From: Escherichia coli
GTDB lineage: Bacteria; Pseudomonadota; Gammaproteobacteria; Enterobacterales; Enterobacteriaceae
Length of the DNA stretch: 64,000 nucleotides
Assembly: GCF_024502345.1 (NCBI RefSeq)
Contig: NZ_JALDNN010000001.1
Reading direction: 5' to 3' (one strand)
Under the pieces are notes generated by a model. The model made no database searches. It worked only from the letters and a program-made list of their open reading frames with translations, and was not told the DNA's origin. Shown here piece by piece: positions 40,120 through 40,408 of the stretch. How positions within the stretch are numbered: position 1 is the stretch's first letter; every line of letters starts with the position of its first letter. The translations under genes were made by a program, and so were the position numbers.

Positions 40120-40199
40120 TGAATACCTGTCCACTTATATTTGCTATAAAGAGTGTTGTGTATATTTTGCCATTTGGAGCGAAATTTTAAGGATAGAAT

Positions 40200-40216
40200 A
40201 TTAACTTAACCTTAAG
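40200..40216 (-). promoter_or_regulatory. PmrA/BasR box in the arnB-ais divergent control region
   Basis: On the arn-coding strand the sequence reads CTTAAG-gttaa-GTTAAT, matching the direct-repeat PmrA box pattern YTTAAK-N5-YTTAAK; it lies about 80-100 bp upstream of the arnB start. Confidence 0.65.
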
Positions 40217-40408
40217 AAACTAATATTAGACGTAAATATTGAAATTTTTATATTTTTTCTTATTTAGGCTTTGCATTTGGCAAAATTTTGAGGCATTTTG
40301 CCGGCATCGCAGGATTTTTAATATTACACCAACTGCTAATTATCGCCAGAAATGTCGCTCAATTTCACGGTAATTGTCTGGTTGCGCTTGTCTATAGGTG
40401 GAGTTTAC

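Follow-up and report, generated by a model that had tools for sequence, protein, structure and literature searches.

One BasR/PmrA box between the divergent arnB and ais genes of Escherichia coli, and its probable service to both promoters

The spacer between arnB and ais in the E. coli chromosome raises the question of whether a single binding site for one response regulator governs two divergent genes and, if so, by what arrangement. The BasS/BasR (PmrB/PmrA) system senses iron and antimicrobial peptides, and the box in this spacer switches on the arn lipid A modification operon, which adds aminoarabinose to lipid A, a main route to polymyxin and colistin resistance. Knowing the exact position of the switch helps in reading resistance mutations and in building reporters. 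The arnB-ais box is the E. coli orthologue of the PmrA box of Salmonella pbgP/pmrG and is already known biology. Our overall reading, held with good confidence, is that this known BasR site switches on the arn operon and that the same single box probably also serves ais.

The box and the arnB promoter

The window, a 64-kb stretch of E. coli chromosome, carries arnB on the minus strand and ais on the plus strand on either side of the box, in agreement with the initial annotation, which had placed the motif between a divergent arnBCADTEF operon and ais. The 1-kb stretch around the box showed 100% identity to NZ_CP109924.1. Of 5426 complete E. coli genomes, 5418 contain it and 5414 contain the 135-bp stretch between the arnB and ais starts, which has an identity of at least 99% in 4252 genomes and of 95-99% in a further 1162. 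A search of Rfam families across 39950-40600 gave no match at E <= 1.

Transcription starts were taken from a re-analysis (PMC12987492) of Cappable-seq data from E. coli K-12 MG1655 (data of Balkin et al., GSE215300), a single dataset obtained with antibiotics and not with Fe3+ induction, whose table gives just one primary start per gene. The top ten primary starts seen under antibiotic treatment only include those of ugd at 2099734 (-), arnB at 2365854 (+) and ais at 2365723 (-) (PMC12987492). K-12 and the window were related by a gapless 351-column alignment of 99% identity, in which the window position equals 2406029 minus the K-12 coordinate. By this conversion, two divergent mapped starts, at 40175 (-) for arnB and 40306 (+) for ais, lie 131 bp apart and flank the one activator site. 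The features on the arnB side are as follows.

38962..40101, minus strand: arnB coding sequence, first gene of arnBCADTEF, with its ATG at 40101 (PGAP) or at 40119 (K-12 record)
40102..40174, minus strand: arnB 5' untranslated region, 74 nt from the start site at 40175 to the PGAP codon and 56 nt if the K-12 codon at 40119 is used
40113-40108, minus strand: Shine-Dalgarno-like GAAGGA within the arnB 5' untranslated region
40175, minus strand: arnB transcription start, first A of CCAAATGG; K-12 2365854 (PMC12987492)
40184..40189, minus strand: arnB -10 hexamer TAAAAT, at -14 to -9 of the mapped start
40190..40199, minus strand: 10-bp spacer ATTCTATCCT, separating the box from the arnB -10
40200..40216, minus strand: BasR/PmrA box CTTAAG-GTTAA-GTTAAT, with half-site 1 at 40216-40211 and half-site 2 at 40205-40200

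The box reads CTTAAGGTTAAGTTAAT on the minus strand and attaacttaaccttaag on the plus strand, and the arn strand carries exactly the CTTAAG-N5-GTTAAT that had been annotated at 40200-40216. A PmrA box has been defined as a half-site 1 of CTTAAG and a half-site 2 of NTTAAT separated by a 5-bp gap (PMC3973317); at 40216-40200 a direct repeat of the form CTTAAG/T and NTTAAT/G is present with this gap. Taken by itself, the literal pattern is weak evidence, being only mildly unusual. With at most one mismatch it occurred once in the 64-kb window, where 0.13 occurrences were expected, and at least one match turned up in 11 of 100 shuffles of the window. The degenerate form YTTAAK-N5-YTTAAK with one mismatch occurred eight times in the window (3.4 expected). 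The shuffle count for the literal pattern, together with the palindromic TTAA core that is common in AT-rich DNA, are what speaks for the motif being a chance match with no regulatory role.

The initial annotation had proposed a scan with a PmrA/BasR weight matrix. A position weight matrix was trained on 44 unique arnB boxes of other genera together with the K-12 ugd, eptA and pmrR boxes, Escherichia-type arnB boxes being excluded. With this matrix, which is not fully independent in that its training sites were picked with a consensus filter, the box was the sole strong match in 64 kb, scoring 24.4 bits against 12.3 for the runner-up site. On 50 shuffles of the window, the top score per shuffle had a mean of 13.7 and a maximum of 19.8 bits. 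Because the box exceeds all 50 shuffles, the motif represents more than chance. The flanking TT and the TT within the 5-bp gap, both outside the consensus filter, also match. The earlier view that the motif fits the PmrA direct repeat is thus upheld by both the published definition and the matrix score. By its sequence, 40200-40216 is a genuine BasR/PmrA box at an already known site, and the initial annotation was right to record it as expected biology and placed it correctly. Binding of BasR here would follow by analogy with orthologous sites, in vitro binding having been reported for the corresponding boxes of K. pneumoniae and Salmonella (PMC2565834, PMC3973317).

On the arnB side, the box occupies -41 to -25 of the mapped start and so lies on the coding strand over the -35 region, at a fixed distance from the -10. 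No -35 hexamer was found at arnB: AGGTTA (40212-40207), which stands at that place, matches the consensus at two of six positions. The distance from the -10 to the mapped start is 8 nt, slightly long, with CCAAATGG at the start conserved across Escherichia and Citrobacter. The K-12 ugd, eptA and pmrR promoters share the arrangement of a box, exactly 10 bp and a -10-like hexamer: CTTAATATTAACTTAAT and TATTCT at ugd, where the start in the same Cappable-seq set lies 7 nt past the hexamer and the box spans -39 to -23; CTTAAGGTTGGCTTAAT and GAGCAT at eptA; and CTTAAGGTTCACTTAAT and CATACT at pmrR. They differ from arnB in half-site 2, which is CTTAAT rather than GTTAAT, and no description of them includes a box-less divergent partner promoter at a conserved distance. 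Transcription from the eptA and pmrR promoters depends on the PmrA box, and deletion of the pmrR PmrA box gave the expected phenotype (PMC8129183). In E. coli, BasS/BasR drives transcription of arnBCADTEF (PMC10962826; also PMC4145685).

Conservation of this architecture was examined in an ArnB-relative scan with one genome per species, which gave 80 Enterobacterales loci, of which the 78 with at least 200 nt upstream were used. The box is conserved at orthologous promoters: a match at 10 or more of 11 positions was present on the arnB strand in 72 of the 78 upstream regions (2.6 of 78 in shuffles), and a box followed by exactly 10 bp and TANNNT in 69 of 78 (0.07 of 78 in shuffles), counts that overstate independence since the species are related. 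The full layout of box, 10 bp and TANNNT was never found on the opposite strand among these 78 regions. Because the sequences of the 5-bp gap and of the 10-bp spacer vary freely among genera, the conservation is a genuine phylogenetic footprint. The reading as a chance match must also contend with a box that lies on the right strand, at the exact 10-bp spacing to the -10 and at the right distance from a mapped start. We give it almost no credence, since the matrix score and the cross-species architecture effectively refute it.

The arnB-side role of the box is almost certainly that of a classical -35-replacing (class II) activator site. The box, its spacing, the start and the conservation were read here, and binding of BasR is carried over from the literature on orthologues. 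BasR at -41 to -25 would stand in for the absent -35 and recruit RNA polymerase, presumably via sigma region 4, following the models for PmrA and PhoB; from 40175, transcription would then read into arnBCADTEF.

The ais promoter and its distance from the box

The ais side is organised differently, with the following features.

40217..40270, no strand assigned: A/T-rich spacer of 54 bp from the box to the ais -35-like element, conserved in length and just 50-60% in sequence
40232-40240: conserved A-tract GTAAATATT within the box-ais spacer
40271..40276, plus strand: ais -35-like TTGCAT, overlapping a conserved CTTTGC at 40269-40274 and lying 17 bp before the -10
40292..40301, plus strand: ais block GGCATTTTGC, containing the -10 CATTTT at 40294-40299
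40306, plus strand: ais transcription start; K-12 2365723 (PMC12987492)
40307..40408, plus strand: ais 5' untranslated region, 103 nt with the start site at 40306 included
40409..41011, plus strand: ais (pmrG) coding sequence with a GTG start at 40409, encoding the LPS core heptose(II)-phosphate phosphatase

The ais start lies 7 nt past CATTTT, and the box spans -106 to -90 of it. At position -2 of this start, the window strain differs from K-12. No second BasR box was found at ais: the class II position, 40267-40283, reads ggctttgcatttggcaa, and nothing else in the window scored above 12.3 bits, leaving just one activator site in the region by the matrix scan. Inspected by eye, the conserved ais block fitted neither a sigma-54 promoter nor a PhoP box. 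An operator between the ais -35 and -10 was likewise rejected; inverted repeats are present there in several species, but their sequence and spacing differ.

The comparison with mapped starts that the initial annotation had named as a check therefore gave a divided outcome, with the box overlapping the -35 region of arnB and lying outside that of ais. Its description of the region as shared by both genes stands in so far as both belong to the published BasR regulon: pmrG has served in E. coli work as a gene activated by PmrA and induced by Fe3+ (PMC3140997), and ais co-varies with eptA, arnA, arnB, arnC, pmrR, ugd, waaH and basR in two transcriptome studies (PMC13405929, PMC4145685). Because the one box lies at -106 to -90 of ais, however, and ais lacks another, "shared" does not mean that two promoters both overlap the box. 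A 2014 regulon table annotates arn with "BasR" and ais with no listed regulator, and the phrases "pmrG promoter" and "ais promoter" were not found in the literature searched.

The spacer was also described at the outset as AT-rich, consistent with binding by nucleoid proteins, and both parts of this description are supported. The GC content is 25% over 40150-40299, compared with about 50% in the flanking genes, and includes the run aaatttttatattttttc at 40242-40259. The region ais(-)/arnB(+) is one of 78 "promoter islands" (2363626_315, U00096.2) and is H-NS-bound in the Kahramanoglou and Oshima datasets (PMC3661553); by coordinate conversion, this island corresponds to about 40111-40425 of the window. 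AT-richness relative to the flanks is accompanied by promoter-like sites, with extra consensus promoter matches on both strands. The two hits of the consensus scan, at 40227-40254 (+) and 40368-40339 (-), were set aside, having neither mapped-start nor conservation support. From the box to the ais -10, 6 of 12 species showed AA/TT periodicity of 10-11 bp above that of shuffles (p < 0.03), which is consistent with curved DNA and is not compelling.

For comparison of the ais side, 15 ais loci were assembled: that of the window, four from the ArnB scan (L005, L006, L008 and L011) and ten found via Ais homologues. In their alignment, conservation across the spacer is poor apart from two islands. 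The first comprises the box, the arnB -10 and the arnB start; the second is the ais core promoter, CTTTGC...(A/G)GGCATTTT. The box matched at 11 of 11 positions in 14 of the 15 loci and at 10 of 11 in the remaining one. Similarly, GGCATTTT was present in 14 of 15, with GCGCATTTT in its place in C. tructae.

The distance from the box to CATTTT falls into two main classes. It is 77 bp in six taxa (E. coli, E. albertii, E. marmotae, C. amalonaticus, Citrobacter sp. R56 and C. enshiensis) and 67 bp in six loci (two of Salmonella, C. rodentium, Intestinirhabdus alba, an assembly labelled C. freundii, and L093). The remaining distances are 56 bp in Escherichia sp. E1V33, through a 21-bp deletion, 69 bp in L094 and 64 bp in C. 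tructae. Within each main class the spacer is exact in length, with a sequence identity of 50-60% (random expectation 32%). The distance from the ais -10 to the start codon, which ranges from 30 to 113 nt among species, is not conserved in length.

The distances of 56, 67 and 77 bp differ by whole helical turns, whereas 69 and 64 bp do not. Strict helical phasing was downgraded as an explanation, with these two spacings out of phase and only about two of four inferred indel events keeping phase; phasing of the box relative to the ais promoter is, on these alignments, suggestive. The centre of the box lies at -98 of the E. coli ais start in reverse orientation, a placement that is unusual for direct activation.

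Five ais loci have no adjacent arnB, and each has a box that matches at 11 of 11 positions and keeps the usual spacing to the ais promoter, a count that was scored by adjacency to ais and in which the taxa are not independent. In C. rodentium, the C. freundii-labelled assembly and L093, menE is followed by ais; in I. alba the order is menE, pmrD, ais; and in C. tructae a lone ArnT-like PMT-family gene adjoins ais. Conversely, arnB loci of the Citrobacter freundii complex that have no ais upstream keep their own box and lack the ais promoter block. Retention of a box by each gene where the pair is split likely reflects a dependence of ais on the box. The leftward -10 has also been kept, exactly 10 bp from the box, in all five arnB-less ais loci (TAATAT, TAGAAT, TATATT, TAATAT and TACTCT). 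Downstream of this leftward -10, four of the five loci showed no shared ORF or conserved RNA, just the 3' end of menE or pmrD in antisense.

Explanations for BasR control of ais

In the reading that we prefer, ais would be transcribed from its own sigma-70-type core promoter, 131 bp from that of arnB (TTGCAT, 17 bp, CATTTT, start at 40306), and the same box, centred at -98 in the opposite orientation, would make it BasR-dependent in cis, acting across a length-conserved, A-tract-rich, H-NS-bound spacer. Comparative data incline us, by a small degree, towards the single box being the cis element for BasR dependence of ais: a distance of 77 or 67 bp in 12 of 15 loci and retention of the box in the five arnB-less loci point to a cis requirement, but the centre at -98 and the out-of-phase distances of 69 and 64 bp count against it. 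More tentatively, one BasR dimer site may work in two modes, replacing the -35 at arnB and acting as a distal, reverse-oriented site at ais. The ais-side centre would then fall at -98 in E. coli, -88 in Salmonella and -77 in Escherichia sp. E1V33, whole turns apart over a curved, H-NS-bound A-tract spacer, a picture that we hold with the same reserve. A stronger version, in which the leftward promoter is itself part of the ais switch, would explain why the box and its -10 survive beside ais in loci that have no neighbouring arn gene.

It is rather unlikely, though well within consideration, that the box acts directly on arnB alone and that firing of the leftward promoter induces ais indirectly. 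Under this explanation, negative supercoiling, or the breaking up of an H-NS filament over the AT-rich spacer, would open a weak ais promoter, a route to which we assign the same rather low probability. A GC-rich discriminator following a weak -10 is a trait of supercoiling-sensitive promoters, and E. coli ais has such a discriminator, GCCGGC; this GC-richness is not conserved, however, the corresponding sequence being ATGCAT in Salmonella and TCATGA in C. freundii. Indirect induction would agree with the persistence of the leftward -10 along with the box in every arnB-less ais locus, with the lack of anything recognisable downstream of it in four of these five, with the H-NS-bound "promoter island" status of the spacer (PMC3661553) and with the position of the box at -98, which is far for direct contact. 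Neither supercoiling nor displacement of H-NS, however, accounts for the exact 77 or 67 bp found in 12 of 15 loci. Far less probable is activation of ais by BasR from a box-proximal rightward promoter, or via an unrecognised weak BasR site. In such a promoter, itself improbable, the -10 would lie some 20 bp rightward of the box, so that the box fell near -41 of a start at about 40248-40262. In 11 of 14 taxa, hexamers resembling a -10 do cluster on the rightward side of the box at 19-24 bp (Salmonella GATAAT, I. alba TATAAT, E. coli AATATT/TATTGA), the consensus scan gives TAGACG, 16 bp and TATATT at 40227-40254, and the published start table is restricted to the primary start of each gene. Such hexamers are expected by chance in so AT-rich a region, however; three taxa lack one, whereas the distal promoter carries GGCATTTT in 14 of 15 loci and varies to GCGCATTTT in the other. 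In E. coli, TATTGA is missing the essential final T. Further, the sole mapped inducible ais start is at 40306, and nothing resembling YTTAAK-N5-YTTAAK is present at the ais -35.

What is mildly new here is the box-less ais promoter, the conserved spacing of the box from that promoter, also at loci without an adjacent arnB, and the persistence of a leftward promoter at such loci. If confirmed, the preferred arrangement, with the box acting in cis on ais, would illustrate cleanly, in a natural setting, how a single response-regulator site can drive two divergent genes through two architectures. These ais-side points would make a modest contribution to studies of promoter architecture; they leave the picture of the system unchanged and do not define a new kind of system.

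Comparison with known systems

The pho box of PhoB, a member of the same OmpR/PhoB family, offers a parallel to the arrangement at arnB: it too is a direct repeat, of 11-bp periodicity, that takes the place of the -35, with sigma region 4 contacted by the activator. The two differ in recognition sequence and in signal. The PmrA docking model was built on the PhoB-sigma-4 complex, the PmrA-sigma-4 contact being one for which direct evidence is lacking according to the same source (PMC4660055). PmrA binds its boxes as a head-to-tail dimer upon phosphorylation (PMC3973317), and crystal structures of PmrA-DNA complexes are available, from which a docking model sets sigma region 4 against the two DNA-binding domains, the contact being modelled (PMC4660055). 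These features were described for pbgP of Klebsiella pneumoniae, which is similar to arnB in having hexamer direct repeats 5 bp apart, a head-to-tail PmrA dimer (PDB 4S04/4S05) and one half-site over the -35, with a modelled sigma-4 contact (PMC3973317, PMC4660055). In contrast to the E. coli site, the K. pneumoniae box is CTTAAT-ATTAT-CCTAAG, and at its pbgP promoter a PhoP box and another start site are present in addition (PMC2565834). In the Klebsiella loci that were sampled, arnB had no ais upstream.

The closest counterpart is the orthologous pbgP (pmrH)/pmrG locus of Salmonella enterica (L085 and L092), where arnB and ais/pmrG are divergent as in E. coli. Both have a single box on the arnB strand (CTTAATGTTAATTTAAT in Salmonella), followed by 10 bp and TANNNT (TAGGGT in Salmonella), and both share the ais core block, CTTTGC...AAGGCATTTT in Salmonella. 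Wosten and Groisman (J Biol Chem, 1999) reportedly carried out PmrA footprinting and S1 mapping of starts in the Salmonella pbgP/pmrG region. Induction by low Mg2+ via PmrD works in Salmonella, whereas it is weak in E. coli (PMC3140997). The boxes differ in half-site 1 (CTTAAT in Salmonella, CTTAAG in E. coli) and in half-site 2 (TTTAAT and GTTAAT, respectively), and the Salmonella box lies 67 bp from the ais -10 instead of 77 bp, one helical turn closer.

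Leftward promoters beside ais in the absence of adjacent arnB

At four ais loci that lack an adjacent arnB (L086, L087, L088 and L093), a full BasR-type leftward promoter was retained, consisting of the BasR/PmrA box, a 10-bp interval and TANNNT. The boxes lie at the following positions:

L086, 1881-1897: box
L087, 1834-1850: box
L088, 1832-1848: box
L093, 1337-1353: box

Neither a gene nor a conserved RNA was found downstream of the leftward promoter at these four loci. A transcript initiated there would be antisense to menE or pmrD. At the C. tructae locus (L089), a single PMT-family gene (320-1780; ArnT-like, 486 aa) is located immediately under the box-dependent leftward promoter. 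This gene is divergent to ais, and the remaining genes of the arn operon are not adjacent.

Start codon and 5' UTR of arnB

The choice of arnB start codon was ambiguous, with two candidates found within window positions 40099-40119:

40101, minus strand: ATG, arnB start in the PGAP version (379 aa)
40113-40108, minus strand: good Shine-Dalgarno sequence, GAAGGA, ahead of the ATG at 40101
40119, minus strand: ATG, arnB start in the K-12 record (385 aa)

Each of the two ATG codons is kept in Escherichia and Citrobacter. The arnB 5' UTR of C. amalonaticus (L008, about 2255-2480) contains an insertion of ~200 bp that separates the arnB promoter from the start codon. This insertion is a dispersed intergenic repeat, present in E. 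coli genomes at a median of 5 copies each with 80-90% identity, and resembles an ERIC/IRU element.

Strain differences and further elements in the arnB-ais spacer

Alignment of the window with K-12 over 351 bp revealed four substitutions, all of which were located at the ais start region or to the right of it, and none of which fell within the box or the arnB promoter. One of the four, at 40304, places a G in the window strain versus an A in K-12 at position -2 of the ais start.

On the side of the box that faces ais, 14-25 nt away from it, all ais loci carry a conserved A-tract, (G)TAAA(A)ATA, which occupies 40232-40240 in the window. This tract could serve the arnB promoter as an alpha-CTD/UP-type contact, or else it could be the -10 element of a minor rightward promoter. 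Two additional consensus sigma-70 promoter matches were detected:

40227-40254, plus strand: match in the spacer
40368-40339, minus strand: match in the ais 5' UTR

These matches, which are without support from mapped starts or conservation, agree with the published listing of this spacer as a "promoter island" (PMC3661553).

Additional box-like sequences at ugd and eptA

In the K-12 ugd 5' UTR (L003, minus strand, about 38-28), GTTAAGTTAAT was found just 5' of the ugd start codon. The arnB box has this 11-mer as its 3' part; the copy in the ugd 5' UTR is distant from the ugd promoter box. At the K-12 eptA promoter (L004, minus strand, about 4662-4640), the eptA box is preceded, at a distance of 2 bp, by an additional CTTAAG hexamer (CCTTAAGAACTTAAGGTTGGCTTAAT); this hexamer may constitute a third half-site.
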